Source of the DNA: Alphaproteobacteria bacterium UBA3768
GTDB lineage: Bacteria; Pseudomonadota; Alphaproteobacteria; CAAHEQ01; UBA3637
Length of the DNA stretch: 64,000 nt
Direction of reading: 5' to 3'
Assembly (NCBI GenBank): GCA_002372315.1
Contig: DFFU01000026.1
Span: forward strand, 1,230-65,229
Position numbers and translations under genes: made by a program
Notes under the pieces: generated by a model
Databases searched by the model: none
Seen by the model: only the letters and a program-made list of their open reading frames with translations
Told to the model about the DNA's origin: nothing
Part shown: positions 36,173 to 55,907 of the stretch, piece by piece
Layout of the letters: each line of letters starts with the position of its first letter
How positions within the stretch are numbered: position 1 is the first letter of the stretch

Positions 36173-37081
36173 ATGAAAATTAATTTGGATAAAACAAAAA
36201 TACGTGATGAAGAAGGCCCGATTTTTTTATATCATTCCAGTTTGGTATCAGATATAAAAAATTTTTTGCCATTATCTCATTTTGGAACAATTGTGGCGGC
36301 TCAAATGCGTGGGACACATCAAATATATAAGTATTTTGGTTTTGATGCTCCGTATCCTATACCAAAGCAATTACCAGATTTTATACTAAAACGCCTTACT
36401 CAAACGAAAAAACAACCTCAAATTTTCACATATAAAGTGCATTTGGGAATCAAAAATCCTTTGACAATTCCTGATTTGGTCGATCATTCTTTGAATCAAT
36501 ATTATCAATGGTTTAATGGAAAATATGTACCCAAAACGAAATTTCTAACACATGAAGAGTTGCGTGGTGGTATGGGATCGGAAAATACAGAATATAAAAA
36601 AAAGTTAACACAATTTATTTTTGTGGATCCATTTACCCGAACGATAGAGGATTTAAAAAAAGAGCTGACTGCAGAATCAATATATCCCAATAATATGGAT
36701 TTTGATCATACATCCTCAAAATTTCCATATTACTTAAAGCCTGTTATTGAAACAGCGAAAAAAATTCCATTTAAACTTGCAGAATGTGTATGTTTTCAAA
36801 GACTTATTAGATTTATGGAAAAAGAAGGTTATGATAGCTTTTCTTATGAAAACCAATGTGAAGATCCAGGAAATAAAAGTTATATTATATTTCGTCCTCA
36901 GCAAGTTTTTTTTGAAAATGCTCCAGAAATAGAACACATAATTCCAGAATCACTTGAAAAAAAGAATCTTTTAAACGCTATTGAGCGTGCTTTTTTCTCT
37001 TTGGGAAAAGCACCTTGCGATCGGGTAGAAAAGTACAGATTACTAGGGCACCGCTTGTCTACATTAAAAAATATGGAATAA
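36173..37081 (+). CDS. hypothetical protein
   Basis: 302-aa ORF with chromosomal-type codon usage and no recognisable domain. Confidence 0.45.
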   Translation: MKINLDKTKIRDEEGPIFLYHSSLVSDIKNFLPLSHFGTIVAAQMRGTHQIYKYFGFDAPYPIPKQLPDFILKRLTQTKKQPQIFTYKVHLGIKNPLTIPDLVDHSLNQYYQWFNGKYVPKTKFLTHEELRGGMGSENTEYKKKLTQFIFVDPFTRTIEDLKKELTAESIYPNNMDFDHTSSKFPYYLKPVIETAKKIPFKLAECVCFQRLIRFMEKEGYDSFSYENQCEDPGNKSYIIFRPQQVFFENAPEIEHIIPESLEKKNLLNAIERAFFSLGKAPCDRVEKYRLLGHRLSTLKNME

Positions 37082-37125
37082 TATTTAAGGAAGAATTAAA
37101 GTACTTATAAATAAATGCAACAAGA

Positions 37126-37201
37126 TGGTGGGTGCGACAGGGATTGAACCTGTGACCCCTACCGTGTGAAGGTAATGCTCTTCCTCTGAGCTAAGCACCC
37201 C
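37126..37201 (-). tRNA. tRNA-Val(CAC)-like gene, variant copy (attL side of island)
   Basis: The 3' 56 nt are identical to the tRNA-Val at 54619-54693. The D-arm differs (GCTTAGCTCAGAGGAAGAGC) and base pair 7-66 is a T.C mismatch. It has its own TTGACT-17-TATAAT promoter (revcomp of 37218-37246). Confidence 0.65.
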
Positions 37202-37647
37202 AAGTTCAACTGAAAGCATTATACAATAAAGGTTTTATAAAGTCAATAGGCAAAAATAGGAAAATTGAAAAATACTTTTTAAACCCTCTAAAATACCCCT
37301 AAATCTGTTTCAACTGTTGAAAAAATGTTGAAAAATGGTTCTGTTGAAAAAATATAAGAAGAGAAAATAAACAGATACCATCTCACATATCTTAAATTAT
37401 CTCACTTTTTCCAACACAAGAAAGGTTTCTGATACCCCCCTTTCTTGTGTATTTTTATGGGTTATGGCATCTTTCCCCCCACAAATTAACTGAAAGGGAA
37501 AGTATGACTAACAAGAAAGATTATCTCACATTTTCCAACATAATCTCAAATCCTCTAAAAAGCAGGATGAAATGTATGGTTGCCAAATATCTAAATAACA
37601 AGTTTTTCCATATACTTTCCAAGCATTTTAACTGAAAGGATTTTACA

Positions 37648-38943
37648 ATGGCAACAAAATTAAATCAAGTAATCACACTAAATCAAAAAGCAGTGGAAAA
37701 CTTACCAGTTCCACAAGAAAAGAGTGTCATATACTATGACACCAAAGAAGAGAAATTGTATCTCTTGGTAAGTAAAACAGGAACAAAAACATTTTACCTG
37801 TTATCAAGAGTGAAAAGCAGAGTGGCAAGAATTAAAATTGGCAGATTTCCTGACATTAAAGTTGAAAAGGCAAGAGAAATTGCCCAACAATTAAAAAGTT
37901 CTATTGCCACAGGTAATGACCCAGAGAAGAACAAACTTGCTCTTAAAGGGGATATTACCTTCAAGGAACTTTTTGATATGTATATTGAAAAGTATGCCAA
38001 AGACAACCTAAAATCTTGGAAGATTGGGCAGTATGTAATCAACAAACATTGCCAAAAGTTCTTCAACAGAAAATTGACAACCATAACCAACAAGGAACTC
38101 AAAGAGTTCATTGAGGAAGTGGCAACCAACAGCACTGATACTGCCAACACATTGCTGAAAAAACTGAAAGGCATTTTTAACAAAGGCATTGAATGGGAAA
38201 TCTACAAGGGGGACAACCCTGTCAATAACATCAAATCATACAAAGAAAACAGAAGAGATAGGTTCTTACAACCTATTGAACTGGGTGATTTCTTTGATGT
38301 CTTAAAGGATGAACCAGAGGATTTGAGGGATATTGTCATCCTTGGATTAAACACAGCAGCAAGAAAAAGCAATATTCTGTCTATGGAATGGAATGAACTG
38401 GACCTTGCTAACAATCTTTGGAGAATACCTGCCCATAAATCCAAAAATGGTGATGTAATGATTATTCCATTGTTGGATGAGGCAAAGAATGTTTTATTAA
38501 AAAGGAAAAGTGAAGATTTCCAAAGAAAATATCATTGTCATACAAGACAAGGAGAGAAACTAAAAAATCTTTTTGCCACTTATGTTTTCCCTTCTGTTAG
38601 GAATAAAGAAGGACACTTAATGGGATTTAGAAGGTTATGGGATGCTTTCAGAAAGCACTTTTTTGAGAAGTGTAAGTTATCAAAAGGTGATTTGGTTTTC
38701 CATGATTTAAGAAGAACTCTTGCTTCATTTGAAGCACTGACTGGGCAATATTCTTTACAGATTATTGGAAAATCATTAGGGCATAAATCTACTGCTTCAA
38801 CAGAAATCTATGCCAGATTACTAACAGAACCAGTTAGAGCATCCATGAATGCTGCCACAGATTTGATGAAAAAACAGATGGATTTTCCAACATTATCTCA
38901 AAAGGTAGAAGATTATCCAAGGTTATCCAAGAACAATGAGTAA
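37648..38943 (+). CDS. int: tyrosine-type site-specific integrase (phage integrase family)
   Basis: C-terminal catalytic box HDLRRTLASFEAL...GHKSTASTEIYARL (R, H-x-x-R, Y). N-terminal SAM-like/arm-binding domain. Adjacent to the tRNA-derived att site. Confidence 0.9.
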   Translation: MATKLNQVITLNQKAVENLPVPQEKSVIYYDTKEEKLYLLVSKTGTKTFYLLSRVKSRVARIKIGRFPDIKVEKAREIAQQLKSSIATGNDPEKNKLALKGDITFKELFDMYIEKYAKDNLKSWKIGQYVINKHCQKFFNRKLTTITNKELKEFIEEVATNSTDTANTLLKKLKGIFNKGIEWEIYKGDNPVNNIKSYKENRRDRFLQPIELGDFFDVLKDEPEDLRDIVILGLNTAARKSNILSMEWNELDLANNLWRIPAHKSKNGDVMIIPLLDEAKNVLLKRKSEDFQRKYHCHTRQGEKLKNLFATYVFPSVRNKEGHLMGFRRLWDAFRKHFFEKCKLSKGDLVFHDLRRTLASFEALTGQYSLQIIGKSLGHKSTASTEIYARLLTEPVRASMNAATDLMKKQMDFPTLSQKVEDYPRLSKNNE

Positions 38944-39013
38944 AAATGCTTATGGGTCAATGACTTATTTGAAGAAATGAAATAAGATATTTGACATAGA
39001 AAGGAGTAGAAAA

Positions 39014-39199
39014 ATGACTAAATTACTTACACCAGAAGAAACAGCAGAACTACTGAATGTTTCAATCAAATTACTCAATGATTGGAGATACAATCAGAAG
39101 GTAAATCTCCCCTATGTCAAAATTGGGAAATTGGTGAGATACAAATTGTCTGATGTTGAACAATTCATACAAGGATGTTGTGTTCAAATGAGTTTTTAA
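39014..39199 (+). CDS. AlpA-family phage/island transcriptional regulator or excisionase (HTH)
   Basis: 61 aa, LLTPEETAELLNVSIKLLNDWRYNQKVNLPYVKIGKLVRYKLSDVEQFI, the classic AlpA/Xis pattern. Confidence 0.65.
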   Translation: MTKLLTPEETAELLNVSIKLLNDWRYNQKVNLPYVKIGKLVRYKLSDVEQFIQGCCVQMSF

Positions 39200-39328
39200 G
39201 AAATGCCACTTAAAAGGTGGTTGCCAGAGAACTGGCAAAAAATCAAGGCAGGTGTCTTGTAGTTGTAAATGGAAGGAGCAACTTAAAAGAAGTCCAACCA
39301 AAGAAAGTATAACTGAAAGGTTTTTAAT

Positions 39329-40126
39329 ATGAAAAAGAATAACAAATATAAAAAACAAATGAGAAGAAAAAAAACAAATGCTGAAAAGAAGTTAGCACAT
39401 ACTAACTGCTTAAATCAGAAGGAAAATCTTACTTCAAGTATTGAGGAAGGAGAACAAGGTGGAAAAATACGTGTTTGTCATAGTATGATTCCTGCCTGGG
39501 GCACATCTGAAGATGAACAACTTGCCAAAGAAGTATTCCTTTTTTCAGAAGTATTTGACATGTTCCAATCTGACAAAATGGTGAATTTTGTAATTATGAA
39601 AATTACTTTTTTGGGTAAGGATGATGATATTAGTGATGCTATTGAAAAATTAAAAAGTTTTTCATCAACTCTCTCACCAAGTTTTTCTATAAGTGAAAAA
39701 GCTGTTGCTGATGGAGTATTCTTTGGTGGTTTTAATAAGCAAAGTAAGAGAGAGCACATTAGGTTAAGTAATGATGAATTATCTATTCAAATGGATGAAA
39801 CATTTGATGTTGGGGAATTATTTGGACTTAATCTAAATCAAGTTGAAAAGGTTTGTTTCACACTTCCAAAAGATTGCTCTAAAAAATTAAAAAAACAAAC
39901 TCACTTATTGAGGTCTTGTCTTTTGGGAATGATGTATGATAATGAGTTTAATATTTCAGAAATCTCTATTTCTTGTGAAAATCAAGCAGTTCTTATTGAC
40001 ATGATGAAAATGGAGAAAAAATTACCTTTCCCTCTACTGACTGAATTAAGCAAAGATTATGATGGGAAAATCATTGCTACAATCTCTAAAACATTTGGTT
40101 TAGGTGCTTTTAAGAAAGCAGCATAA
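39329..40126 (+). CDS. hypothetical protein (island cargo)
   Basis: 265 aa, preceded by the AACTGAAAGG motif. No recognisable domain. Confidence 0.4.
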   Translation: MKKNNKYKKQMRRKKTNAEKKLAHTNCLNQKENLTSSIEEGEQGGKIRVCHSMIPAWGTSEDEQLAKEVFLFSEVFDMFQSDKMVNFVIMKITFLGKDDDISDAIEKLKSFSSTLSPSFSISEKAVADGVFFGGFNKQSKREHIRLSNDELSIQMDETFDVGELFGLNLNQVEKVCFTLPKDCSKKLKKQTHLLRSCLLGMMYDNEFNISEISISCENQAVLIDMMKMEKKLPFPLLTELSKDYDGKIIATISKTFGLGAFKKAA

Positions 40127-40203
40127 ATCCAAAAAGTTGTATGTGGTTGGAGCAACTTAAAAGAAGTCCAACCAAGTAAATCTTACAGAAAAGGAGTAAA
40201 AAT

Positions 40204-40503
40204 ATGTGTAAGACAGCAAAAACCTTTGAAGGAGGGTTAAATCCTTCAAATAACAATGTTTCAACTTCAAAAGAAGAAAGAAACAAGACCCAAAAGTGGT
40301 TGGAAAATTGGATAAACAACTCATCTGCTTCCAATGATGAAAAATCAAAGGTCAAGCAATGGTTGGAAGATTGGGTTAAAGATACACCAACTGCTAATGA
40401 AAGTAAATCCAAAACAAAGGAATGGTTGGAAAAATGGTGCTCCAATAACAACCAAAATCCAACAAAACAATTCCTTGAATGTTGGATAAAGGATTGTGCC
40501 TAA
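40204..40503 (+). CDS. small tandem-repeat protein (about 4 x 21-aa K-x-K-x-WLE-x-W units)
   Basis: KTQKWLENWINN / KVKQWLEDWVKD / KTKEWLEKWCSN / TKQFLECWIKDCA. Confidence 0.4.
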   Translation: MCKTAKTFEGGLNPSNNNVSTSKEERNKTQKWLENWINNSSASNDEKSKVKQWLEDWVKDTPTANESKSKTKEWLEKWCSNNNQNPTKQFLECWIKDCA

Positions 40504-40606
40504 AATTAGGCAGATACTGCCTATGCTATATGTGTAGGCAGTATCCTTTCTAAAAATTACATTTTTTAATCATAAATACATTTGTAGTGAAAAAGGAGAA
40601 AATAAT

Positions 40607-41185
40607 ATGACAGATTTAACAATTACTCAAAGACATATTTTAGAATTTATTAGGTTCAAAACAAATAAGGGTTTTCCCTTTTATGGAAGTAATGAGTATG
40701 TTGCCAATGCTTTGGAAATAAAGGAAAGTTCAGCAAAAGTTCTTATCAACAAACTAATCAAGGATAATTATTTAATAAAATCCAGTGATATTAAGCATAA
40801 AAGAATTTTATCTTTATCTGGTAAGGAATATCCAAGAATGCCTTGGGTAAATATGTCAGATGTCAATAAATGGGAAATTCAAAAGAAAAGAGATGAATAC
40901 CTCAAAGAATATGAAACTGCTGATAAATGGGGTTATAAACTTCAAGCAGAAAATGATATTCTTCAAAAAAGATGTGGTGATTTACAAAGGAACTATGATG
41001 AGTTAAAAAAGGTATATGATGGGTTATCTAAACAATTACAAGAAACCTTTGTTCCTCAATATCAAGCAATGGCACAAAGAGTTAAAGGTTTGGAAAAATT
41101 ACTAAAAGAGCAATATGGTCTTACAGATAAGCAAATAAGTGTTATGTTAAAACCAGTAAGTATTCCTATTGGAGAATATTGTTGA
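40607..41185 (+). CDS. hypothetical protein with N-terminal winged-helix-like domain and C-terminal coiled coil
   Basis: ITQRHILEFIRFKTNKGFPFYGSNEYVANALEIKESSAKVLINKLIKDNYL, then heptad-rich sequence. Confidence 0.4.
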   Translation: MTDLTITQRHILEFIRFKTNKGFPFYGSNEYVANALEIKESSAKVLINKLIKDNYLIKSSDIKHKRILSLSGKEYPRMPWVNMSDVNKWEIQKKRDEYLKEYETADKWGYKLQAENDILQKRCGDLQRNYDELKKVYDGLSKQLQETFVPQYQAMAQRVKGLEKLLKEQYGLTDKQISVMLKPVSIPIGEYC

Positions 41186-41633
41186 GAGTTTTTAACTCCA
41201 TATTCTTACAATATTCATCTTTGGCAATATACATAAAGTCCCAACCTAATAATTTTCTCTGTTTCTTATCTTCTGTTGAGTAAAAATCTTTGTATTGGTT
41301 CAATAATTCTTTTATTTCTGCTTTTAATTCATCACTTGCTTCATCATTGTCATCAACATAGGTATAGCAAGAGCATCCATTAACATCCAAATAATTGGGG
41401 TCTCCACCTAATTCAAGCAGATATTTAACACTATCTGCTTTTAATGTAAATTGGCAACATAGTTGAAGTAAAGAAGACAAGTTCATAGTAATGGGTTCAT
41501 TTATGTATTCTATGGTGCTTATAATCTCATCCATCTTTTTAGGATTACTCATAACATCTACCATATTCTTATATCTAATTTCTACATTTAAGTTGGCAGT
41601 TTTATTATTACCTAATATTTTAATTAAAAACAT
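41166..41633 (-). CDS. hypothetical protein with one ankyrin-like repeat
   Basis: LLQLCCQFTLKADSVKYLLELGGDPNYLDVNGCSCYTYV. Confidence 0.3.
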   Translation of the reverse strand: MFLIKILGNNKTANLNVEIRYKNMVDVMSNPKKMDEIISTIEYINEPITMNLSSLLQLCCQFTLKADSVKYLLELGGDPNYLDVNGCSCYTYVDDNDEASDELKAEIKELLNQYKDFYSTEDKKQRKLLGWDFMYIAKDEYCKNMELKTLNNILQ

Positions 41634-41712
41634 TTCAAACCTCTTTTCTATATCATAAATATTTATTAGTTTTAGGTTAAACTATGTAATTTTTTAACCT
41701 TTTAATACAGGT

Positions 41713-41857
41713 GGAAATGACTATTGCCACTTTTTTTGTAGAGGAAATGACTATTGCCACCATTCTTTGATATAGGAATCAGTATTACTCTCATTGAGAA
41801 TGAATGTTTCAATTATTGAAAATGAGTATTACCATTAGAGGAAATGAATATTGCCAC
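41713..41857. repeat. iteron-like array: 3 good plus 3 degenerate copies of an 18-bp repeat GGAAATGA(C/A)TATTGCCAC at 21-33 bp spacing
   Basis: Copies at 41713-41730, 41743-41760 and 41840-41857 are identical or differ at one position. Degenerate copies lie at 41776-41790, 41797-41815 and 41818-41836. Confidence 0.5.
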
Positions 41858-42313
41858 CCCATTTTGGGATATGCCTTATTTTATAAGGGGTTTGATGGTG
41901 TTTTTTCTTCCTATAATAGTATTATAATAGAATTAAAAAAGAACTATTATAATAGTTCTTTTTCTTCTTTTTGTATAATAGCAAACTTGTTTAATGGGGA
42001 ATAATAGAGGTAGTTAAATAAAGGGAGATTAAATAACCCAAATTAAACAAGCAAATAAGTTAGTCCAATTAAAAAGGAAAATAATATGGGGATATTAAAC
42101 AAGGGAAAATAATATAGGGGCATTAGTCAGGTAAAATAATGAAACTGGAATAATGGAAACTGGGTGATGTGGGGTTGTTCTGCTGGGGTAGTTTTTTTGT
42201 GAGGGGACACCTCTAAATGAGATAAATAGTTATGAGTAATTTTGAACTCTTTTTTCATTACAAACCCCACCATTTCTGGTGGGGATTTTTATGAAAAATA
42301 ATTAAAATATTTT

Positions 42314-42345
42314 TGACTTTCTATGGGTAAATATGGTATAATATA
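42314..42345 (+). promoter_or_regulatory. sigma70-like promoter TTGACT-18-TATAAT upstream of the restriction gene region
   Basis: tttgactttctatgggtaaatatggtataat. Confidence 0.4.
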
Positions 42346-42351
42346 AATACA

Positions 42352-42465
42352 ATAAAAGAGAAATAAAACATCATCTTTTTTTGTTTTATCTAATATAATT
42401 TTCATTGTCATAAAACCAAGTTAATTGTTTTACCTGCCAGTAAAATGGCAGGTTTTTAGTATTTT
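42352..42465 (+). ncRNA. candidate short transcript or leader (about 110 nt) ending in a Rho-independent terminator (CCTGCCA gtaaaa TGGCAGG + U-run at 42431-42465)
   Basis: A promoter immediately upstream and an intrinsic terminator about 105 nt before the restriction-gene ATG at 42573. A second hairpin+T-run (CCCCACC atttct GGTGGGG) at 42266-42295. Confidence 0.3.
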
Positions 42466-42572
42466 TTTATATGAGATGTCAAAATCTGCCATCCTAAAAA
42501 CTTTTTAGTTTGCTTTTTTTATCATAATAGTTTAACATATCCCAATGATTAAATCAACACAAGGGAGTTGTT

Positions 42573-45500
42573 ATGACCAAACCAATAGTTTCATTTAATG
42601 ATGTTTTATCCAAGTTTAGAGCAGAAGCATTCTCTGAAAGGGATAAAGGGTTCAGATTTGAAAAACTGATGAAGAAATATCTTCAAATTGAACCTCAATA
42701 CAAAAACATCTTAAAGACAGTGTGGTTATGGAATGAGTTTCCATTTAGAAATGATTTTAGTGGAAAAGATACAGGAATTGACTTGGTTGCTCAAACAGTT
42801 GAAGGAGATTACTGGGCAATTCAATGTAAATGTTTCAGAGAGGATGCTTATATTGACAAATCAGGTGTTGATAGTTTCTTATCCACATCCAGTAAAAGTT
42901 TCATGGGAGAAGATGGTAAAAGCAAACAATTTACCCAAAGATTATGGATTTCTACAACAAATCATTGGAATAGTGAAGCAGAAGAAACCATTAAAAACCA
43001 AAATCCCCCACTTCACAGGATTAGTTTAACAGATTTACAAAACACATCTGATTACATTGACTGGGATGAATTGGTCAATGGTATGGAAACAAGTGCCTTA
43101 AAAGAGAAAAAACATCCCAGAGACCACCAAATCCAAGCAATCAACAACTTCCATGAACATTTTAAAAATGCTGATAGAGGTAAGTTGATTATGGCATGTG
43201 GGACAGGTAAGACCTATACATCCTTAAAGATTGCTGAAAATGAAACTGATGGGAAAGGAACAATCCTGTTTTTAGTGCCATCTATTGCTTTATTGGGTCA
43301 AACTTTAAGAGAATGGAGTGCCCAAGCAGAAAAACCCATTTATCCTATCTGTATCTGTTCTGATGCTACTGTTGGACAGGATGAAGATGATGATATAAGT
43401 GTAGTTGATTTAGCATTACCTGCCAGCACAAATGTGAGAAGCATTGTCAATCAGTTTGAAGTTGCTAAAAAGAACCAGAAGGGAATGATAGTTGTATTCT
43501 CAACTTACCAATCCATAGATGTTATTTCCAAAGCACAAGCAGAATTAAATAAAAGACAGAAGGATAACTGTATCTTTGACTTGATTATCTGTGATGAAGC
43601 ACACAGAACCACTGGAATTATCTTAAAGGATAAAGAAAAAGGTGGTTATGATGAAAAATCCTTTACCAAAGTCCATGACAATAAATGGGTTGAAGCAAAG
43701 AAAAGATTGTATATGACAGCAACTCCAAGATTGTATAAGGAAGATGCCAAGAAAAAAGCAGAAGAAGGTGATGCTATACTTTGTTCAATGGATGATGAAG
43801 CAATTTATGGACAAGAAGTTTATAGAATTGGATTTGGTGAAGCAGTTGATAAGAGGTTGTTATCAGATTACAAGGTCTTGGTTTTAACATTAAAAGAAGA
43901 ACAAATCCCAGCAGCATTTAGAAGTATCATCAACTCTGGTAAGAAAGATAAAGAAATTACCACAGATGATGTCAGTAAGTTGATTGGATGTATAAATGCT
44001 CTGTCTAAAAGGGTTATAGAAGCAGATAAAGAGTTCAATGATGATAGAGCACCCATGAGGAAAGCAGTTGCTTTCTGCCAAAGCATTAAAGCATCCAAAA
44101 TGATTACTGGGATGTTTAATGAGCATAAAGATACCTATTACAATTCTCTCCCACAGGAAGAAAGAGAAAAGTTGGTGGGTGTAGAAGCAAAGCATATAGA
44201 TGGAACAATGGGAGCAAGTCAAAGAGATGAATTATTGACTTGGTTAAAAGATACCCCAGAAGATGGTAAAGAATGCCATATTTTAACCAATGTGAAGTGT
44301 TTGTCAGAAGGTGTTGATGTGCCATCACTGGATGCTGTGATGTTCTTGGCAGCAAGAAACAGTCAGGTTGATGTGGTCCAATCTGTTGGAAGAGTTATGA
44401 GAACAGCACCTGATAAGAAGTATGGATACATCATTATTCCTGTAATGATACCAGAAGGAATTAAACCAGAAGAAGCATTGGAGGATAACAAAAGATATGC
44501 TGTTATTTGGACAGTATTGAATGCTTTAAGAGCACATGATGACAGATTTGATGCTGAAATCAACAAAATCAACTTGAATAAGAAGAAAGGTGATAGAATA
44601 AAAGTCATTGGTGTTGGTAATGGTGAAGATGATGGGGATGGTAGTGGAAAACCAACCAGTAGAGACACCCAATTAGAAAGACAATTGACTTTACCATTAG
44701 CAGAATTACAAGAATTACAAAATGTGATTTATGCCAAAATGGTTCAAAAGGTTGGCAGTAAGAGATATTGGGTTCAATGGGCACAAGATGTTGCCAAGAT
44801 TGCTCAAAGATATATTGTTAAAATCAACCATCTAATTGAAACAGATACTAAATCACAAGAAGTATTCAATAAGTTCTTAAAAGGTTTAAGAAAGAACATC
44901 AACCCATCTGTATCCAAAGATGAAGCAATCCAAATGTTGGCACAGCATTTGATTACCCAACCTGTGTTTGAAGCATTGTTTGAAAATTATTCATTTGTAT
45001 CCAACAACCCTGTATCTAAATCCTTACAAAAGATGGTGGATTTATTGGAAAAGCAAGCAATGGATGAAGAAGGTGAGAAGACCCTTCATAAGTTCTATGA
45101 ATCTGTTAAAGAGAGAGTTAAAGGGATTGACAATGCTGATGGCAGACAGAAGATTATTATTGAACTGTATGATAAGTTCTTCAAAACTGCTTTCCCAAAG
45201 GTTGTGGAACAGTTGGGAATTGTCTATACACCAATAGAAGTAGTTGATTTTATAAACAATTCTGTTGCCCAAGTATTGAAAAAAGAGTTTAACAGGAACT
45301 TGTCTGATGAAAATATTCATATCCTTGACCCATTTACAGGGACAGGAACATTTATTACGAGGTTGATTCAAACTGGTTTAATTGATAAGGAAGCATTACC
45401 AAGAAAGTATGCCAAAGAACTTCATGCCAATGAGATTGTGCTGTTGGCATATTACATTGCTTCAATCAATATTGAAAATGCTTACCATGATGCTGTGGGT

Positions 45501-47465: not shown

Positions 47466-48862
47466 TGGATATAAATGACTTTCTAACAGATTTACTTAAA
47501 AAAGATTTCAAAAAGAAATCTAAAGGAAAGTCAGCATCCAGTGCCATCAACGCCATTAAAACTGTATCAAGTCCTATGGAAGATAAGGATTATAAGTTAG
47601 ATAAGGCACAAGAAGAACTGTTTGACTTGATTGAAAACACCCATACAAATGTATTCATTCAAGGTCAGGCAGGAACAGGAAAATCAACTTTTATCAACCA
47701 CTTAAAGAAATATTCTGATAAAAGGATCAGAATTGTCTGTCCAACAGCAGTTGCTGCCATCAATGTTGGTGGAACAACCATACATTCTTTATTCAAATTA
47801 CCATTCTCTGATTTTTTTATCTTTGATGATCTATTAAAAGAAAAAAGACAGAAACTTAAATCCATCTTGAATAAGACAGATTTACTCATAATTGATGAAG
47901 TTTCTATGGTTAGACCAGATATGTTGGATATTATAGACCTGCTATCCAGACAAGCAAAAGGTAAGGATGAACCATTTGGTGGATTACAGATGCTTCTGAT
48001 AGGTGATTTATGCCAATTACCGCCAGTAATTAAATCCAATGCTTACCATATCTTTAAGGAAGCATATGGACATAGAAATCCATATTTCTTTGATGCCAAC
48101 TCTTATAAAGCAGGAAACTTTGAAAAAATTGAACTGACAAAGGTTTATAGACAATCTGACAAAGAATTATTGAAAAATCTTATCAGGGTTAGGGAAAACA
48201 AAGAGGTTGATGAAGCAGTTGAATACTTTAATACCTGTAAGATTGATGATGAAGATGTCCTCAATACTGCTATGACTATCACTCCTTATAAACAAGTAGC
48301 AGAAAACATCAACCAAAAGAGATTGGGAGAATTAGAAACTCCTGTTCATACTTATGTTTGCCAAACCAAAGGAACATTTGATGAAGCAAAGGAATGTCCT
48401 TCTCCCAGAGTTTTAACATTAAAAGAAGGTGCTTTGGTTATCTTTAATAAGAATAACCCACCGTCTTGGATAAATGGAACAAGTGGAATTATTGAGAAAT
48501 TGGAAGATGATGCTATTACTGTAAAGGTCTTAAAAACTGGTGAAAGTGTTGCTGTTAAAAGAGAAGAATGGAAAAGTTATCAGTATGATTATGACAGAGA
48601 AACAGGAACTGTTGTTGAAAAAGAAGTTGGGACATTTATTCAATTCCCATTACAACTGGGATATGCTCTGACTATTCATAAAGCACAAGGTAAAACTTTG
48701 GATAAAGTTGTAATAGACCTGAATAGAGGAGCATTTGCTCATGGTCAATTATATGTTGCTTTAAGTAGAACCAGAAAGAAAGCAGATATTCATTTAACTA
48801 AAAGAATTGATGTATCTGATATTATTATGGATGATAGAATTGTTGAGTTTATGGGGAAATAA
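47465..48862 (+). CDS. PIF1/RecD-like SF1B DNA helicase
   Basis: Walker A GQAGTGKST, Walker B LLIIDEVSMV, the PIF1 signature PFGGLQMLLIGDLCQLPPV, and C-terminal LTIHKAQGKTLDKVVIDL. The start codon overlaps the upstream stop (ATAATGG). Confidence 0.8.
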   Translation: MDINDFLTDLLKKDFKKKSKGKSASSAINAIKTVSSPMEDKDYKLDKAQEELFDLIENTHTNVFIQGQAGTGKSTFINHLKKYSDKRIRIVCPTAVAAINVGGTTIHSLFKLPFSDFFIFDDLLKEKRQKLKSILNKTDLLIIDEVSMVRPDMLDIIDLLSRQAKGKDEPFGGLQMLLIGDLCQLPPVIKSNAYHIFKEAYGHRNPYFFDANSYKAGNFEKIELTKVYRQSDKELLKNLIRVRENKEVDEAVEYFNTCKIDDEDVLNTAMTITPYKQVAENINQKRLGELETPVHTYVCQTKGTFDEAKECPSPRVLTLKEGALVIFNKNNPPSWINGTSGIIEKLEDDAITVKVLKTGESVAVKREEWKSYQYDYDRETGTVVEKEVGTFIQFPLQLGYALTIHKAQGKTLDKVVIDLNRGAFAHGQLYVALSRTRKKADIHLTKRIDVSDIIMDDRIVEFMGK

Positions 48863-48863
48863 G

Positions 48864-49676
48864 ATGCTAAAAGTTGGAACAAGAGAAGAAATTAAACAAT
48901 TCTTAAAGGAACATAATACAGGATTTTATGTGTATATCCTGTATCATCCAAACAAAACCCCATTCTATGTAGGTAAAGGAAAAGGAAAAGGAAATAGAGT
49001 ATTTCAGCATGAATATGAAGTAGAACATTCCCAGTATAATAATCCATATAAAATCAACACAATTAAAAAAATATACAGATTGGGGGGAACTGTTGGATAT
49101 GGTATTGACAATATCTTTGAACAGGAAGCAGATGCCTTTGCCAGAGAAAGAGAATTAGTAAAACAAATTGGGAGACCCCCATTAACCAATTTAACTGATG
49201 GAGGAGAAGGTGCTGTCAATTTAGACCTTATCTCAAAACAAAAACATAATGATACTCTTTGGGGAGATACTGGGGATAATCCAAGAAGTATTATAAACAG
49301 AACCTTCCAAGAATTAGCACCAGTAAAATCTGTGCCTATAAAACCACTCCAACAGTTCAAAGCAGTCCATCTAACTCCTCATCCAAAGGCAAGAAATTAT
49401 AGTCCAAGAGAAGCAGCAGCACTCTTTATCAGTTCTGTCTTTAATGGGGTTTTAATTGAAGAAGGAGCAATTATTCCAAGATTGGTCAATATCAAAGGGG
49501 TAGATGGAATTATAGAAAATGGAGTTGGAAGAGATATTTTAGTTGCTGGTTGGGCAACCATTATTCCAAATGATGACCCAACATTAGAACAATTCCAACT
49601 AACTAAAAGTGGTAAGGATGCTATCCAAAGATACATCAAGGATTTACCAAAAGAAGTGCTCAACAGGTATATGTAA
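48864..49676 (+). CDS. GIY-YIG nuclease domain protein
   Basis: N-terminus GFYVYILYHPNKTPFYVGKGKGKGNRVFQHEYE matches GIY...YIG...R...H spacing, and a Glu follows about 40 aa later (FEQEADAF). The ATG at 48864 comes right after the helicase stop; the track ORF begins at 48807. Confidence 0.65.
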   Translation: MLKVGTREEIKQFLKEHNTGFYVYILYHPNKTPFYVGKGKGKGNRVFQHEYEVEHSQYNNPYKINTIKKIYRLGGTVGYGIDNIFEQEADAFARERELVKQIGRPPLTNLTDGGEGAVNLDLISKQKHNDTLWGDTGDNPRSIINRTFQELAPVKSVPIKPLQQFKAVHLTPHPKARNYSPREAAALFISSVFNGVLIEEGAIIPRLVNIKGVDGIIENGVGRDILVAGWATIIPNDDPTLEQFQLTKSGKDAIQRYIKDLPKEVLNRYM

Positions 49677-49687
49677 AGGAGAATAAT

Positions 49688-49894
49688 ATGGGATTTTTTA
49701 GTGAATTATTTGGTGCTATTATGAACCAGAACAATAATTATGGAGATCAAAATTACCATAGAGGAGAACCCACAGCAGAAGATTACATTAGGTCTGGTGA
49801 AATAGAAAAAGACAACTATGATGATGGCAAAAGGAACACCATAGATGAGGATGGTGGTTTGTCTGATAGTTGGGACAAAGAGGATAGAGAATAA
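49688..49894 (+). CDS. small acidic hypothetical protein (68 aa)
   Basis: ORF with an SD (AAGGAGAA) directly after the GIY-YIG gene. Asp/Glu-rich. Confidence 0.3.
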   Translation: MGFFSELFGAIMNQNNNYGDQNYHRGEPTAEDYIRSGEIEKDNYDDGKRNTIDEDGGLSDSWDKEDRE

Positions 49895-50503
49895 TTAAAG
49901 GTTTCCTATCCCCACTTTCTTCAAATATCTACACATAGTTGTTGGATGAACTCCCATTATCTTGGATATTTTTGCTTGTGATATACCTTTATCAAGCAAT
50001 TTTTTTATCTTCTGTCTGCTCTTGGATAGTTTTAATTCTCTTGTCTTTGAACCCAATGGTCTTCCTAATTTTACATTCTGTTCTTTTAATTTATTTAATG
50101 CCATTCTAATTCTGGTGGAGATGTGGTCTCTTTCAATTTCAGCAGCAAGACCAAAGGTATATGCCATTATTTTGGATTGTAAATCATTCTTAAAGTTATA
50201 ATTCTCTTTAATACTGATAATTTTAATATCTTTATTAATAGCATCCTGTAAAATACCTGCCAGTTCATAAAGATTTCTTGCTAACCTACTAATCTCTGTA
50301 ATAATAATGGTATCCCCAGCAACTGCTGTTTCCATCAACTTACCTAATTCTCTTTTACTCAAAGGTTTTCTACTGCTAATGTTTTCCTCTATCCATCTAT
50401 CCACTTTAATCCTGTTGTTTTTAGCATATTCAACAATAGCAAAGTGTTGGTTGGAACAGGTTTGTTTCTTTTCCATAGAACACCTACAATATCCATAAAT
50501 CAT
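49895..50503 (-). CDS. serine recombinase (resolvase/invertase family)
   Basis: N-terminal catalytic domain IYGYCRCSMEKKQ (Ser nucleophile), the SRLARN motif, and a C-terminal HTH (ISQAKISKIMGVHPTTMCRYL). Confidence 0.85.
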   Translation of the reverse strand: MIYGYCRCSMEKKQTCSNQHFAIVEYAKNNRIKVDRWIEENISSRKPLSKRELGKLMETAVAGDTIIITEISRLARNLYELAGILQDAINKDIKIISIKENYNFKNDLQSKIMAYTFGLAAEIERDHISTRIRMALNKLKEQNVKLGRPLGSKTRELKLSKSRQKIKKLLDKGISQAKISKIMGVHPTTMCRYLKKVGIGNL

Positions 50504-50742
50504 AATTCACCTCTTTTTATTTTATTTATTGAAAATACAAGATTTTTTGTTGTAAGAAGTGTTAGCAAATAATCATTTGTTTTCTCAATGACTTATACAA
50601 TTCCTAATTACAACAAGATACAAATTGCCACATATTCCTTATTTTTCAATATATTCAATGGAATAATGAGGTGTTTTAGATACCTCTTTTTTATCTAAAA
50701 AAGTATTTGCTTTTTAACAAATGTTTTTGTAATATTCTGGGT

Positions 50743-51195
50743 ATGACTAAAACTTGTTGCTTTTTTGGTAATGCTACTATCTGGAATGTGAAGGAAATTG
50801 CTGATAAAATTAGGAAAGCAGTAGTTGATTTAATAACCAATAAGCAAGTTGATACTTTCTTGGTTGGGATTAAAGGTGAGTTTGAAACATTATCACATAA
50901 AATATTACAGGAAATAAGATTAGATTATCCAAATATTAAAATTATGCTGGTAATTGCTTATGAAAGAGACCTTCATAAATGTGGTTATCACTTTGATGAC
51001 TTTTATTATCCACCATTAGCAGAAGTTGGGTATAGGGGATGGAGCATTGCTAAAAGGAATGATTGGATTGTAGAACAAACAGATTATGTGATTGCTTGTA
51101 ATCAGTATCAAGGTAGAGCATACAACTATTGTAAAAAAGCAAAAAACAAAGGAAAAACCATTATTGAGATAGGAAAACAAGATGAACCTGTTTAA
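50743..51195 (+). CDS. SLOG-superfamily protein (DUF1273/YpsA-like)
   Basis: VDTFLVGIKGEFETLSHKILQEIRLDYPNIKIMLVIAYE ... DYVIAC ... KTIIEI matches the YpsA-like Rossmannoid pattern. Confidence 0.45.
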   Translation: MTKTCCFFGNATIWNVKEIADKIRKAVVDLITNKQVDTFLVGIKGEFETLSHKILQEIRLDYPNIKIMLVIAYERDLHKCGYHFDDFYYPPLAEVGYRGWSIAKRNDWIVEQTDYVIACNQYQGRAYNYCKKAKNKGKTIIEIGKQDEPV

Positions 51196-51364
51196 TTTTT
51201 TTAAGAAGAAACCTGAAAGCACATTAGATAAAGCATTAAAGGAAGTTGAAAGAGTTGGTAAGCAACAACCAGTAAAGGGAGTTGAGGCATTGGATGAATA
51301 TTTCAAAGCACATCCCTATAAAATGAAAAAGATAAAAAGTAAAAAAAGAACTAAAAAGCAATAA
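51182..51364 (+). CDS. small basic hypothetical protein (60 aa)
   Basis: ORF overlapping the end of the SLOG gene. Lys-rich C-terminus. Confidence 0.25.
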   Translation: MNLFNFFKKKPESTLDKALKEVERVGKQQPVKGVEALDEYFKAHPYKMKKIKSKKRTKKQ

Positions 51365-51412
51365 ATTACATCTTTTAACCAATAAATACTTATACCAACA
51401 AAGGATATAAGT

Positions 51413-51826
51413 ATGATGGATTATGATGATGTAGATATAGTGTTAGAAAACTTACCACTTTTATTACAAAATAAGGATAAGATATTAAATAATAAAACTT
51501 ATTCAAAATGTAAAATAAGAGGTTCAGGTATATTTTTTAAGAATAAAAACATCTATATTGGTTTTACATTAGGCAATTTGCTTAAATTATGGTCCAGTCC
51601 TTGTTCCTGTTGGAAGTTTAGTAAGTATTATACCTATAAGATGACCTTGTTTGGCAATGGTGAAGCAGATATATTCTCCAAAGCAGTTGATGGTTCTTAT
51701 CAGCAATCTTTAATAGATGGGGATTTAATTGTTCCACATATTGAAGATGCTGTAAGAATAGGTGAAATGGTGCTAATTCCAAAATGTATAGATGATGTAA
51801 TTAAAGAATTAAAGGAAAGTAGATGA
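51413..51826 (+). CDS. hypothetical protein
   Basis: 137-aa ORF whose stop overlaps the next start (ATGA). Confidence 0.4.
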   Translation: MMDYDDVDIVLENLPLLLQNKDKILNNKTYSKCKIRGSGIFFKNKNIYIGFTLGNLLKLWSSPCSCWKFSKYYTYKMTLFGNGEADIFSKAVDGSYQQSLIDGDLIVPHIEDAVRIGEMVLIPKCIDDVIKELKESR

Positions 51827-52257
51827 AATTTGATTTTAGTGAGATAAAGAAGTTTTTACAGGAAAAAGCAGATATTGCCAAAGTGGTATCTATATCACCA
51901 TCATTTGGTAGTGAATTTACCACAGATTTAAGTAATGCTACACTTATACCAAAGAAAAAAGAACCAACTATGAGTGATGAAGAACTACAATTCCTTGAAT
52001 TATGCCAAAAACTTTTAAGAAAACTTGGTTTCATAAAAACAAGTTATGACTTTTCAGAGCAATTCATGGGTAAGAGTAAGCATTATTATTCAATGCTTTT
52101 AAGTGAAGGTAGGCAATGTTCCATAGATGGATTACACAATTTAATTAAAAATATTGAAACATTGAATGATGTTCCTGCCACTTCATCAAAATATTTGGAT
52201 GATTTAATAGAAAAAGGAAATAAACTTTTAACCAAAAGGTTGCTGAAATACTTTTAA
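51823..52257 (+). CDS. hypothetical protein
   Basis: 144-aa ORF translationally coupled to 51413-51826. Confidence 0.4.
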   Translation: MKFDFSEIKKFLQEKADIAKVVSISPSFGSEFTTDLSNATLIPKKKEPTMSDEELQFLELCQKLLRKLGFIKTSYDFSEQFMGKSKHYYSMLLSEGRQCSIDGLHNLIKNIETLNDVPATSSKYLDDLIEKGNKLLTKRLLKYF

Positions 52258-52412
52258 TTTTACTTTTATTTTCAAAATTCTCATACAGCAACTTGGTTGT
52301 TCCTCATAATTCAATAATTATGGGGAATTTTTATTGTAAAATCAGAGTTTAGTTGGACCATACATAAAAAAAGTGTAAAAACAGAGTTAAATGTATTGAC
52401 AATTTTACAATT

Positions 52413-53015
52413 TTGCGATATTGTAATGCGACTTTTAAGAGTTCAAATTTACAAAAAAAGGAGCATTCAATGGATTTTGGGTATAAAAGAGTATCAACCA
52501 TAGACCAATCAACCGAAAGACAATTGGAAGGAATTAAACTGGACCGAGTTTTTGAAGATAAACTATCTGGTAAGGATAGGAATAGACCACAATTGGACTT
52601 GCTGTTGTCAATTTTAAGAGAAGGAGACACAATCCACATTCATAGTATGGATAGGTTAGCAAGGAACACCAGAGACCTACTCAATTTGGTGGAAGAAATT
52701 ACAGGAAAGAATTGTAAAGTCATCTTTCACACAGAACATCTGTCCTTTGAACCTAATAAAACAGACCCATACCAACAGTTGATGATGACAATGTTGGGAG
52801 CAGTAGCACAATTGGAGAGAAGTTTAATCCTTCAAAGACAGAAGGAGGGGATTGCCATTGCCAAGAGTAAAGGAAGATTTAAGGGAGGGAAAAGTAAGTT
52901 ATCAGCAGAACAGGTGCTGGAATTAAAGGAATTATCCAAAACCAACTCAATTACATCTCTGGCAAAAAAGTTTGGTATCACCAGACCTACTTGCTATGCT
53001 TATTTGAAAGGATAA
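52413..53015 (+). CDS. serine recombinase (resolvase/invertase, Hin/Gin-like)
   Basis: FGYKRVSTIDQ catalytic Ser, the DRLARN motif, and a C-terminal HTH (ITSLAKKFGITRPTCYAYL). Confidence 0.85.
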   Translation: MRYCNATFKSSNLQKKEHSMDFGYKRVSTIDQSTERQLEGIKLDRVFEDKLSGKDRNRPQLDLLLSILREGDTIHIHSMDRLARNTRDLLNLVEEITGKNCKVIFHTEHLSFEPNKTDPYQQLMMTMLGAVAQLERSLILQRQKEGIAIAKSKGRFKGGKSKLSAEQVLELKELSKTNSITSLAKKFGITRPTCYAYLKG

Positions 53016-53017
53016 TC

Positions 53018-53272
53018 TTATTGGCAGGTTAGTAGAAGGTATTTCTCTGTAATTACCTTTTCTCTTTCTTTGACTTCAAACTTAATGTGATGGTTCATAA
53101 ATGTAATCTCCCCAGATTTATGTTCCTTATCATCATCCTTAAAATCATTATAATTAGCAATTAGTTGTTCAAGTTGCCACATTTCCTTACTATTAAATAA
53201 AGGGAAATCTGGGGGTGAATAGACCTTTGTAAATTGTTTCCTAATCTTATCATTTTCTTTTGATGGTTTCAT
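53018..53272 (-). CDS. hypothetical protein (84 aa)
   Basis: ORF on the minus strand between a resolvase and the pentapeptide-repeat gene. Confidence 0.3.
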   Translation of the reverse strand: MKPSKENDKIRKQFTKVYSPPDFPLFNSKEMWQLEQLIANYNDFKDDDKEHKSGEITFMNHHIKFEVKEREKVITEKYLLLTCQ

Positions 53273-53385
53273 AAGAACCTCCTGTAAAGATTAGATATCA
53301 AAATCCCCCTAAAATAAAGCAGGGGGATGATATTTTCAGTGAATCCAATATAAATGTTGGAATATTTGAGATAATCTTGGATTAT

Positions 53386-54468
53386 TTAAGAATTTTTACA
53401 TTCTTCTTCAAATCTTCTTTTGAACTCCATTACTTCTGAAAGTGGATACTTCAAAGGTTTATGTCCTTTGTTGGATGGTGTTGGCATCCAAAGAAACTCA
53501 CCTTTCTCTGCTTTATGCTTTGCCAGTGTTTTTCTTTTCCTGAATGAAGCAGGACCAATTCCAACAATTTCACACATCTCTTTTTCCAACACCACATCTG
53601 GGATTAGATTAGGGGAAATCTGATTGTTTGAAGGAGGTAATCCCATCATCTTTCTTCTTTTTTCCATTTCCTCTGTTTCAGGTGGAAGAAGAGATTTATA
53701 TTTCATAACATTCTTTTGAACTTCTTTCATCATCTCTGACATTACATATAAATTAGAGTGTTCAAGACAATAGATGAACTCTTGTAATCCATCTATAAGT
53801 TCTTTTTCCATCTTATGTTCTTGATTATACCACCAATCAACATTGTAGAACAAACTTCTTAAACCAAACTTGACATCCCCAAATCTAAAACAACCAGAAA
53901 ACTTGGTATCTTGGCAATTAAAATCCAAACCATTGAGATGATAAAAACTTGTCATTCCTAAAAGTTCAGATTGCTTAAATGCTATTGTGCTATGGTATTC
54001 TTTATTTCCATTTCCACTAATTAGCACTTTTGAAAGAGCATTGGTTATAATGTTGTTGAAATCAGCATAACCATTAAAATCACAGGTATCCAAAGTCAAA
54101 TTGCCAGAAAACTTTGATTTATTAAAACTGAAATCACAATTAAAAGAGCATTCCTTAAAGGTAGTATTGCCATTAAAAGAGCAACCCTCAAATGTAAATG
54201 GAATATTACAATTTTTGTTTTTAATGTTCAAATCAGTAAAGTGGCAATTTTTGAATAAGATTTTGTTATAATTAGTGAGTTTATCAGTAAGACCTTCATA
54301 TTGACCACCTAATAAATCAGCAACTACTTTTGAGTTTGTTTTGAAATCTTTATTTTGAATAAAAAATAACTTCTTACTTTTCATAGATTGTCTTAAAGCA
54401 TCATACTCATCCCCTGTAAAAGTATCATCTTTTCTGCCTTCTGGTCTTTCTCTGATTATAACTGCCAT
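53386..54468 (-). CDS. pentapeptide-repeat protein fused to a C-terminal AlpA/MerR-like HTH-type domain
   Basis: The central region has F-centred pentapeptide repeats (GCSFN GNTTF KECSF NCDFS ... TCDFN). The C-terminus EIVGIGPASFRKRKTLAKHKAEKGEFLWMPTPSNKGHKPLKYPLSEVMEFK resembles an AlpA-type DNA-binding domain. Confidence 0.45.
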   Translation of the reverse strand: MAVIIRERPEGRKDDTFTGDEYDALRQSMKSKKLFFIQNKDFKTNSKVVADLLGGQYEGLTDKLTNYNKILFKNCHFTDLNIKNKNCNIPFTFEGCSFNGNTTFKECSFNCDFSFNKSKFSGNLTLDTCDFNGYADFNNIITNALSKVLISGNGNKEYHSTIAFKQSELLGMTSFYHLNGLDFNCQDTKFSGCFRFGDVKFGLRSLFYNVDWWYNQEHKMEKELIDGLQEFIYCLEHSNLYVMSEMMKEVQKNVMKYKSLLPPETEEMEKRRKMMGLPPSNNQISPNLIPDVVLEKEMCEIVGIGPASFRKRKTLAKHKAEKGEFLWMPTPSNKGHKPLKYPLSEVMEFKRRFEEECKNS

Positions 54469-54618
54469 AGTTGCCTCCTTTGAGCATTTTTATGGGTAGC
54501 ATTATACACCAAAATTACCTCCAAAAGCAATCCAAATGTTGAAAATATGTTGAAAAAAAATAGTCCAAAAGTTCATCACTTTTAGACCTCTTATAAGTTA
54601 TTGATTTTATTGAAAAAA

Positions 54619-54693
54619 TGGTGGGTGCGACAGGGATTGAACCTGTGACCCCTACCGTGTGAAGGTAATGCTCTCCCGCTGAGCTACGCACCC
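54619..54693 (-). tRNA. tRNA-Val (anticodon CAC), canonical copy (attR side)
   Basis: Revcomp GGGTGCGTAGCTCAGCGGGAGAGCATTACCTTCACACGGTAGGGGTCACAGGTTCAATCCCTGTCGCACCCACCA. Perfect acceptor stem. TTGACA-17-TAGAAT promoter upstream (revcomp of 54711-54739). Confidence 0.9.
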
Positions 54694-54747
54694 AAGTTCA
54701 ATGCTCGTATTCTAACTGAAATTTTTCTGATTGTCAAGAAGAATTTT

Positions 54748-55251: not shown

Positions 55252-55252
55252 T

Positions 55253-55708: not shown

Positions 55709-55773
55709 TTTTTGCTCCTATAAAACAAAAAAAGGGAGACGTCAGTTTGCTTCTGAAATCCCCCTTTTTTAAT

Positions 55774-55848: not shown

Positions 55849-55907
55849 AACAGTGGCCATTATAACAAAAAATTTTGCATATTGCAAGAACTTTTTATTA
55901 TTTTCTT

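Follow-up and report, generated by a model that had tools for sequence, protein, structure and literature searches.

The analysed stretch, called the window below, comprises 64,000 nucleotides of contig DFFU01000026.1 from the uncultured alphaproteobacterium UBA3768. Five tRNA genes were located in it by ARAGORN, two of them full-length tRNA-Val(CAC) genes on the minus strand (37126-37200 and 54619-54693) that enclose 17,418 bp. Rfam scored these two at 56.0 and 65.1 bits, respectively, and returned four tRNAs and no other match between 36.5 and 56.5 kb. A repeat finder reported a direct repeat of 79 nt with 95% identity at a spacing of 17,493 bp. The first-pass annotation had described two tRNA-Val copies in the same orientation with a common 56-bp 3' segment; the exact identity is 57 nt (the 56 plus one base), and the crossover must fall inside this block. 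Between the copies lies an island with a P4-type tyrosine integrase gene, an AlpA-like gene and a cargo built around a Type ISP restriction-modification enzyme (Table 1). The island is almost free of CpG and of a set of short palindromes, and this pattern was likely produced by selection to evade restriction. Family assignments were made with Pfam, run on all open reading frames (ORFs) of at least 60 aa that counted as genes, and with PADLOC, PHROGs and NCBIfam, which were applied to subsets.

Table 1. Features of the island and its tRNA borders, in window coordinates
Feature	Position	Strand	Remarks
Exact repeat, left copy	37125-37181	-	57 bp, tRNA-Val positions 20-76 + 1 nt
Hybrid tRNA-Val(CAC)	37126-37200	-	3' 56 nt identical to host gene; 5' 19 nt island-borne
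Sigma-70-like promoter, island-borne	37246-37218	-	Predicted; TTGACT-17-TATAAT, 11/12, toward hybrid tRNA
TGTTGAAAA repeats, three copies, left arm	37315-37350	+	Candidate arm-type integrase sites
P4-type tyrosine integrase, 431 aa	37648-38943	+	Pfam Arm-DNA-bind_3, Int_N, Phage_integrase
AlpA/excisionase-like HTH_17 protein, 61 aa	39014-39199	+	Domain match
265-aa ORF (orf265)	39329-40126	+	No family match; absent from near-identical islands L062 and L063
Trp-rich repeat protein, 99 aa	40204-40503	+	Follows alpA in sister islands
HTH_36 protein, 192 aa	40607-41185	+	Weak Pfam match
155-aa ORF	41166-41633	-	No family match
Iteron-like direct repeats, about 18 nt, GGAAATGAnTATTGCCAC, 3-4 copies	41709-41871	+	Beside HTH_36 gene
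Promoter-like TTGACT-18-TATAAT with upstream TG; terminator-like hairpin about 90 nt on	42313-42453	+	Upstream of ISP gene
Type ISP restriction-modification enzyme, 1630 aa	42573-47465	+	Pfam and PDB sequence search
PIF1/Dda-like SF1B helicase, 465 aa	47465-48862	+	Start overlaps ISP stop
GIY-YIG domain protein	48807-49676	+	Weak matches to PD-T4-3 and a homing-endonuclease family
Small serine recombinase, Mpi-like DNA invertase	49895-50503	-	217 bits, curated cut-off 272
SLOG/YpsA-like protein	50707-51195	+	Weak match; small cargo ORF
Small ORFs, 60 and 137 aa	within 50707-52257	+	Cargo
DUF6626 protein	51823-52257	+	Cargo
Second small serine recombinase	52413-53015	+	Resolvase domain
Pentapeptide-repeat protein, 360 aa	53386-54468	-	Cargo
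TGTTGAAAA repeats, two copies, right arm	54537-54556	+	Candidate arm-type integrase sites
Terminator-like hairpin with T-run, island-borne	54588-54562	-	30 nt downstream of right tRNA
Exact repeat, right copy	54618-54674	-	57 bp
tRNA-Val(CAC), native	54619-54693	-	75/75 nt identical to empty-site gene of L006 and L017
Host promoter of right tRNA copy	54737-54709	-	Predicted; TTGACA-17-TAGAAT

A scan with the AspS protein encoded in the left flank (33547-35313), taking one genome per species, returned about 20 metagenome-assembled genomes (MAGs) of uncultured gut or rumen Alphaproteobacteria at 85-96% identity. Two of these, L006 and L017 (AspS 92% identical), were island-free and carried a single tRNA-Val(CAC) gene in the same neighbourhood, in the order aspS, a 261-aa gene, about 0.9 kb, tRNA-Val(CAC), tRNA-Asn and tRNA-Cys. 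Beyond the tRNA gene, their upstream leader also matches that of the right copy. At the nucleotide level, L017 is homologous to the right flank for 1.4 kb, starting from position 54616 where the right tRNA has its 3' end, and the two right-side ORFs (54748-55708) are host genes found in both genomes. Relative to the sister species, the 17.4 kb enclosed by the tRNA copies is thus inserted DNA. The GC content of the island is 0.32 against 0.36 in the host, and the shift in composition coincides with the repeat boundaries. The annotation as a genomic island at tRNA-Val(CAC), for which an empty site in related genomes and a compositional contrast had been proposed as checks, therefore stands: neither of the refuting conditions named with it applied, since the empty site is present in both genomes, the composition differs sharply from that of the flanks, and the left end of the island recurs beside another tRNA-Val variant in L062 (see below). 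The position between the 261-aa gene and the tRNA 3' end is taken in the window by a 302-aa gene without a family match (36173-37081), whose product has matches on a metagenome contig of 195 kb and, in another sample, on a short contig; in L006 and L017 the gene is missing and about 0.9 kb of unrelated sequence lies there instead, so the spot downstream of tRNA-Val is variable even without the island.

Ten CpG dinucleotides were counted in the 17,418 bp of the island against about 447 expected (observed/expected ratio 0.02), compared with ratios of 0.81 and 0.63 in the flanks, and the CpG-free zone stops exactly at the tRNA copies. The loss affects codon positions 1-2 (two CpGs), positions 2-3 (three), codon boundaries (3 against 171 expected) and intergenic DNA (2 against 66). 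The arginine codons AGA and AGG (AGR) make up 194 of 196 in the island (99%), compared with 23% in 33 flanking host genes, where CGT accounts for 46% and CGC for 14%. The contrast between AGA/AGG inside and CGT/CGC outside, noticed at first pass, is real; the donor codon dialect suggested by it is not, because CpG removal is near total in every codon phase and between genes alike, which makes the AGR bias a by-product of CpG and palindrome removal. Reassigned or unassigned CGN codons in a donor were ruled out, CpG being equally absent at positions 2-3, at codon boundaries and between genes. Deamination of methylated CpG was rejected as a sufficient mutational cause, since TG and CA are only slightly raised in the island, the change of arginine codons to AGR needs transversions, and a dozen motifs without CpG were purged as well.

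When all 3-, 4- and 5-mers were scanned without bias, only a discrete depleted set emerged, for which the host flanks showed normal counts. RGCY occurs once in the island against 111 expected, and AGCC not at all against 48. With 51 expected for each word, TGCA, GTAC, CTNAG and AGNCT are absent, CTAG occurs once, GTNAC twice, GATC four times and GANTC six times, and CATG is partially depleted (17 occurrences). Among the AT-only hexamers, each expected 26 times, TATATA is absent, ATTAAT occurs once, and AAATTT and TTTAAA occur three times each. AATT, TTAA, TAATTA, AATATT, TTATAA, CANTG and TGNCA are at or above expectation. Near zero within 17.4 kb are eleven G/C-containing 4-bp palindromes besides CATG, four 5-bp N-spaced palindromes, several AT-rich hexamers and the whole of CpG. 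Some of the residual sites are clustered: four of the ten CpGs lie within 130 bp (52416-52545) where the second serine recombinase gene has its 5' end, and other avoided sites group in orf265 (39470-40000) and, within the ISP gene, in its methylase region (45099-45659). These clusters look like recent recombination patches awaiting purge.

The choice among synonymous codons in the island depends on the neighbouring base. Alanine after a purine is encoded by GCA in 119 cases, GCT in one and GCC in none, and after a pyrimidine by GCT in 75, GCC in 37 and GCA in none; host alanine codons are without such context dependence. The serine codon AGC occurs 13 times before a purine and never otherwise. 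In 300 synonymous-codon shuffles that preserved the proteins and the codon frequencies of the island, the mean number of sites far exceeded the observed one for CG (170 against 8), RGCY (86 against 1), TGCA (59 against 0), GATC (36 against 3), CTNAG (29 against 0), AGNCT (31 against 0) and TTTAAA (20 against 2), with control hexamers unaltered. The depletion goes beyond composition and codon usage and spares non-target words, as is found where recognition sites are avoided.

Relatives of the island were found in other contexts. L062, from another sample, carries an island end that is 94.5% identical at the DNA level (integrase 98%) beside another tRNA-Val variant and another flank, and so the element has moved. 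A third context, again at tRNA-Val(CAC), is that of L055, whose integrase is 83% identical. Comparison of its int-alpA segment with that of the window showed 280 substitutions, yet only 0 avoided sites in the window and 1 in L055; when the same substitutions were distributed randomly, about 50 avoided sites arose, and never fewer than 34 over 500 trials. The purge is thus actively maintained, and selection is ongoing. A recent donor whose whole genome lacks CpG and palindromes would explain the composition with no selection on the island itself; islands are usually donor-like in composition, and related ISP-bearing islands in other hosts are AT-rich and CpG-poor as well. We consider such inheritance improbable, because the purge held over these 280 substitutions in two island lineages and different hosts, the avoided words differ between elements, CpG-normal patches form a mosaic within depleted ISP genes, and the island-borne part of the left tRNA gene lost exactly its two CpGs despite a resulting stem mismatch. 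We also know of no bacterial genome with a CpG ratio near 0.02.

The sets of avoided words were graded among the relatives. In L055 the int-alpA module is CpG-free and the cargo is not: non-palindromic NCGN tetramers are there at expectation, whereas ACGT, TCGA, CCGG, GCGC and CGCG, together with GATC, GTAC, CTAG, CATG, CTNAG, GTNAC and GANTC, are all absent, each word being expected 5-21 times. This pattern points to palindrome-reading enzymes. A search with the ISP protein returned a homologous gene, 71-85% identical, in other islands and hosts, with CpG ratios ranging from 0.06 to 0.8. The islands found in this way, L065, L068 and L069, have eliminated GATC, GTAC, CATG and CTNAG and kept RGCY and TGCA. 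L068 resides in a host of about 50% GC at a tRNA-Leu(CAG) site (island 5345-20000), with a large serine recombinase as its integrase and a cargo of an ankyrin protein, two small serine recombinases, ISP (72% amino acid identity), an OLD-family nuclease and Fic; it is strongly CpG-depleted and keeps CG only as CGA/TCG. L056, a more distant island at tRNA-Val(GAC) with the same integrase family (47%), avoids only GTAC, GTNAC, CTNAG and AGNCT. In 278 kb from 18 relatives, the host clade itself weakly avoids eight of the motifs of the island, with observed/expected ratios of 0.10 for CTAG, 0.22 for GASTC, 0.36 for GTAC, 0.37 for CTNAG, 0.43 for GTNAC, 0.51 for AGCT, 0.56 for AGNCT and 0.61 for GATC.

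CpG might have been lost for a reason separate from palindrome avoidance, by restriction of the methyl-CpG-dependent Type IV kind once the element has passed through hosts that methylate CpG, or by an undescribed CG-specific nuclease or defence. Every NCGN context is depleted in the island and the ten residual CpGs share no context, and the CpG-free int-alpA module beside a CpG-bearing cargo in L055 would also suit such a cause. CpG is normal in the host, however, and a continuum leads from the L055 cargo, which lacks palindromic CG only, through L068, which keeps CGA/TCG, to the window, where all CpG is lost; several accumulating specificities fit this continuum. We therefore regard a separate cause as possible though doubtful; the graded series favours CpG loss as the sum of many CG-containing specificities.

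The Type ISP enzyme is complete on one polypeptide, with Pfam matches to Mrr_cat_2 (E-value 8e-43), ResIII/Helicase_C, ISP_coupler (1e-48), methylase and Type_ISP_C (4e-113), and its residues 7-1629 form a collinear full-length match to LlaBIII and LlaGI (PDB 4XQK and 5FFJ). The layout is that of an Mrr-like nuclease, an SF2 helicase, a coupler, an N6-adenine methylase and a C-terminal specificity domain. The pair of ISP and helicase genes is kept in L065, L067, L070, L077 and L114; in L065, L067 and L077 the homologous ISP gene has a small serine recombinase gene on either side and is followed by the PIF1-like helicase. From its domains, the cargo of Type ISP enzyme, coupled SF1B helicase and GIY-YIG protein would be defence-oriented. 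CpG-normal patches of 0.5-1.5 kb were detected about 2.5-4 kb into CpG-depleted ISP genes, in the methylase and the start of the specificity domain (L069, 12500-14000; L114, 2500-3500; L077, 12500-13000; L067, 7000-7500), which suggests domain swapping with CpG-normal alleles.

LlaBIII recognises TnAGCC, which contains AGCC, one of the words missing from the island, and the island enzyme is its full-length homologue. The motifs might on this ground have been shed to escape the Type ISP and GIY-YIG nucleases of the island itself. Of the explanations considered we find this the least credible: the host chromosome, where all the motifs occur at normal density, would be exposed to cutting too, L055 shows the same purge in int-alpA and beyond with a different restriction cargo, and L065, L068 and L069 keep RGCY although they encode a homologous ISP. 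Moreover, avoidance as a rule does not extend to Type I and Type IIG sites (PMC6286503).

The two tRNA copies differ at three sites (37182, 37185 and 37194), all within the 5' 19 nt, where the left copy reads GGGTGCT..AGAGGAA against the native GGGTGCG..AGCGGGA. One left-copy substitution leads to a U7-C66 mismatch in the acceptor stem, and two of the three abolish both CpGs of the 5' part, which the right copy keeps at 54677 and 54687. The 3' identity that had marked the left copy as a repeat was borne out; the copy itself is a full-length hybrid gene with an island-derived 5' part, leader and promoter, rather than a fragment. The predicted island and host promoters of the tRNA genes have an identical geometry, with a 17-nt spacing, and the island promoter is kept in L062 and L055, where the left-arm TGTTGAAAA repeats are unchanged as well. 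This nonamer has nine matches in the 64 kb, five of them at the island ends, and no shuffle reached nine; given their position and recurrence, the repeats are probably integrase arm sites.

The attachment site of the island would accordingly sit within a complete island-borne tRNA-Val gene consisting of promoter, leader, 5' part, 57-bp block and terminator. Since both an island promoter and an island terminator were found, the circular form would carry a whole tRNA-Val transcription unit with an internal crossover. Integration would then yield two full-length tRNA genes and units, the right one with native sequence, host promoter and island terminator, and the left one a hybrid driven by the island promoter. 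We infer a second distinguishing trait of the island, namely that its attachment site lies within a complete paralogue of the target tRNA gene from which CpG has been purged. The left copy of L055 is chimeric too, with two acceptor mismatches, and that of L062 is fully paired with a different leader. Integration upstream of the tRNA, which would make the left copy wholly host DNA, was considered because of this L062 copy and is disfavoured on two grounds: the window and L055 have chimeric left copies whose acceptor stems contain mismatches, and the uninterrupted genes of L006 and L017 are collinear with the right copy, leader and promoter included.

A foreign island could also have been joined to the host contig through the shared tRNA-Val sequence during assembly, as the 57-bp exact repeat is close in length to the k-mers that assemblers typically use. 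An independent contig from Logan, L002 (SRR5322936), whose left flank is 100% identical to the window, ends at its position 3648, corresponding to 37154 in the window, 30 nt into the shared block. This stop would be expected too if that sample holds a second copy of the block; as a branch of the k=31 graph, it is consistent with the island or with another tRNA-Val locus in the sample. An artefact would need two coordinated mis-joins in the correct orientation, the island has a tRNA-Val-derived attachment site, in independent samples its relatives adjoin tRNA-Val genes in related hosts, and its integrase family is common in Alphaproteobacteria MAGs. We thus consider a mis-assembly very unlikely.

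A distance of 448 bp separates the left tRNA copy from the start of the integrase gene, and the Arg, His-x-x-Arg, His and Tyr motifs were seen by eye in its translation. The 61-aa AlpA-like protein is 100% identical in L055, L062 and L063 and, judging from its domain, is probably an excision or directionality factor; a tyrosine integrase and an AlpA-like gene just inside the left repeat, as first annotated, are thus supported by Pfam. The 99-aa protein consists of four to five repeats of K-x-W-L-E-x-W and has counterparts in L055 (4345-4542) and L062 (2651-2854), with no match in any library searched. The HTH_36 protein, a possible replication or regulatory protein from its weak domain match, has a homologue of 36% identity in the tRNA-Val(GAC) islands L056-L060. 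A 940-bp spacer (41634-42572) houses the iteron-like repeats, which may be a replication origin of the excised form and together with the HTH_36 protein could constitute a replication module. The spacer region preceding the ISP gene, with a further bidirectional hairpin at 42265-42284 and no Rfam match, could encode a small RNA or a regulatory leader at 42313-42453.

As for the remaining cargo, the first-pass list was upheld for the Type ISP enzyme, the two Resolvase-domain proteins and the pentapeptide and Trp-rich repeat proteins; the protein at 41166-41633, called ankyrin-like there, was matched by no ankyrin or other model of Pfam, PHROGs or NCBIfam. The recombinase at 49895-50503 gave a full-length match to the Bacteroides "master DNA invertase Mpi" model, below the cut-off. 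An invertible or transposable segment between the serine recombinases was rejected, as the sole flanking inverted repeat is a 10-nt perfect core, at chance level for 17 kb. No relaxase, coupling protein or type IV secretion domain was found by the family searches described above, which sets the island apart from integrative conjugative or mobilizable elements; TraA-related matches came only from the helicase domain in the PIF1-like protein and were far below the cut-off. Primase, terminase and capsid-related families were without a match among the island ORFs in Pfam and PHROGs. No relatives of the integrase, helicase, pentapeptide and HTH_36 proteins were found in IMG/VR, and a megablast search of the whole island against the PLSDB plasmids and INPHARED phages gave no match.

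Two observations concern the host flanks. A single ORF of more than 2,637 aa starts just past tRNA-Cys and runs off the end of the window (56088-64000); its sole Pfam signal is a sub-threshold bactofilin-like stretch, and the product is probably a host protein of giant size, either a surface or a repeat protein. In the 46 kb of flanking DNA (1-37125 and 54694-64000), GGTCTC/GAGACC is absent against 9.4 expected and CGTCTC occurs once against 9.8 expected, with six GGTCTC in the island. This scarcity may reflect a host-specific Type IIS-like restriction pressure.

Discrete palindromic words, removal by synonymous changes, purifying selection, partial sharing with the host and differences from element to element together match the avoidance of Type II targets. 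With considerable confidence, we therefore read the segment as a 17.5-kb tRNA-Val-integrating island with defence cargo that is strongly selected for evasion of many Type II restriction systems. Its P4-type integrase would insert it into the 3' part of tRNA-Val(CAC) of an uncultured gut or rumen alphaproteobacterium, and selection would act on the element itself, which would have to escape cleavage by many Type II-like systems on entry to new hosts. Entry is proposed to be frequent, as unmodified double-stranded DNA and into non-modifying hosts.

Several points weigh against this explanation. Restriction systems as the selective agents are inferred solely from the motif pattern, and a high rate of transfer to new hosts must be assumed; no conjugation, mobilisation or packaging genes were found in the island by the family searches. 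The total loss of CpG exceeds what avoidance of palindromic 4-bp sites needs. The host clade avoids neither CpG nor AGCC, GGCC or TGCA, so the pressures on these words must come from elsewhere in the host range of the element. To our knowledge, no characterised enzyme recognises AGNCT. The linkage of island and host depends on metagenome assembly through the 57-bp repeat, and the left tRNA copy of L062 misfits a simple fixed-crossover model, its history possibly involving gene conversion. Finally, integrated elements are normally methylated by the host and show little site elimination (PMC6286503).

More tentatively, the island might be the imprint of a restriction landscape yet undescribed, with dinucleotide-level or degenerate-site surveillance in gut bacteria, and thus a natural restriction-proof chassis that spreads defence genes. 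This reading draws on the loss of CpG in every context, of the whole RGCY set and of AGNCT, and we give it limited credence. An RGCY specificity is known to us solely from the chlorovirus enzyme CviJI.

If selection by Type II systems is the correct explanation, Type II restriction would be a dominant and very diverse barrier in this uncultured gut or rumen alphaproteobacterial community, and the avoided words would predict restriction-modification specificities, some of them possibly new. Such elements would also be natural templates for restriction-evading vectors in gut microbes that are hard to manipulate. As a practical rule, the codon signature of an island can stem from selection on DNA words and need not mirror the codon usage of a donor.

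Among known systems, the island resembles P4-like elements and Gram-negative islands of the phage-inducible chromosomal island (PICI) type in its terminal int-alpA module, integration into a tRNA 3' part, tRNA-derived and arm-type repeats, an empty site in close relatives and a defence-rich cargo. Unlike them, it is without a recognised primase or replicase, capsid-redirecting or packaging gene, its integrase gene lies at the end distant from the native tRNA copy, and it brings a whole tRNA gene with promoter, 5' half and terminator, which gives two full-length genes. Its integrase is at most 28% identical to the phage integrases of INPHARED. In the Haemophilus phage HP1, the attP site includes the whole tRNA sequence; the island is alike in that the homology of attP and attB reaches past a minimal tRNA 3' segment, and differs in that its extra part (5' half, leader and promoter) is a diverged CpG-free paralogue, whereas HP1 carries an identical copy. 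The ISP enzyme shares full-length collinearity and the complete domain set with LlaGI and LlaBIII, and differs from them in that its gene is translationally coupled to that of a PIF1/Dda-like helicase, with a GIY-YIG protein next, and is bracketed by small serine recombinases in related islands.

Site avoidance is known from phage T7, from the GATC-free Staphylococcus phage K and from the depletion of 6-bp palindromes in IncP-1/RP4 plasmids. As in these phages and plasmids, discrete palindromic Type II-like targets were removed from the island through synonymous, context-dependent codons, and its set of words consists in part of motifs that the host clade avoids too. The breadth and depth of avoidance in the island are much greater. 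Near-complete elimination of sites is found mostly in virulent phages and little in temperate or integrated elements (PMC6286503), and plasmids show no excess avoidance of 4-bp palindromes, short targets being hard to avoid for large elements (PMC10359461). The literature searched held no earlier case of a natural bacterial mobile element free of CpG or of palindromes. As a P4-type-integrase island at a tRNA gene with defence genes as cargo, the element is of an ordinary kind, and the degree of its purge is exceptional for an integrated element: with about 15 motifs and the whole of CpG near zero in an integrated 17.4 kb, the island is an outlier relative to the published surveys.

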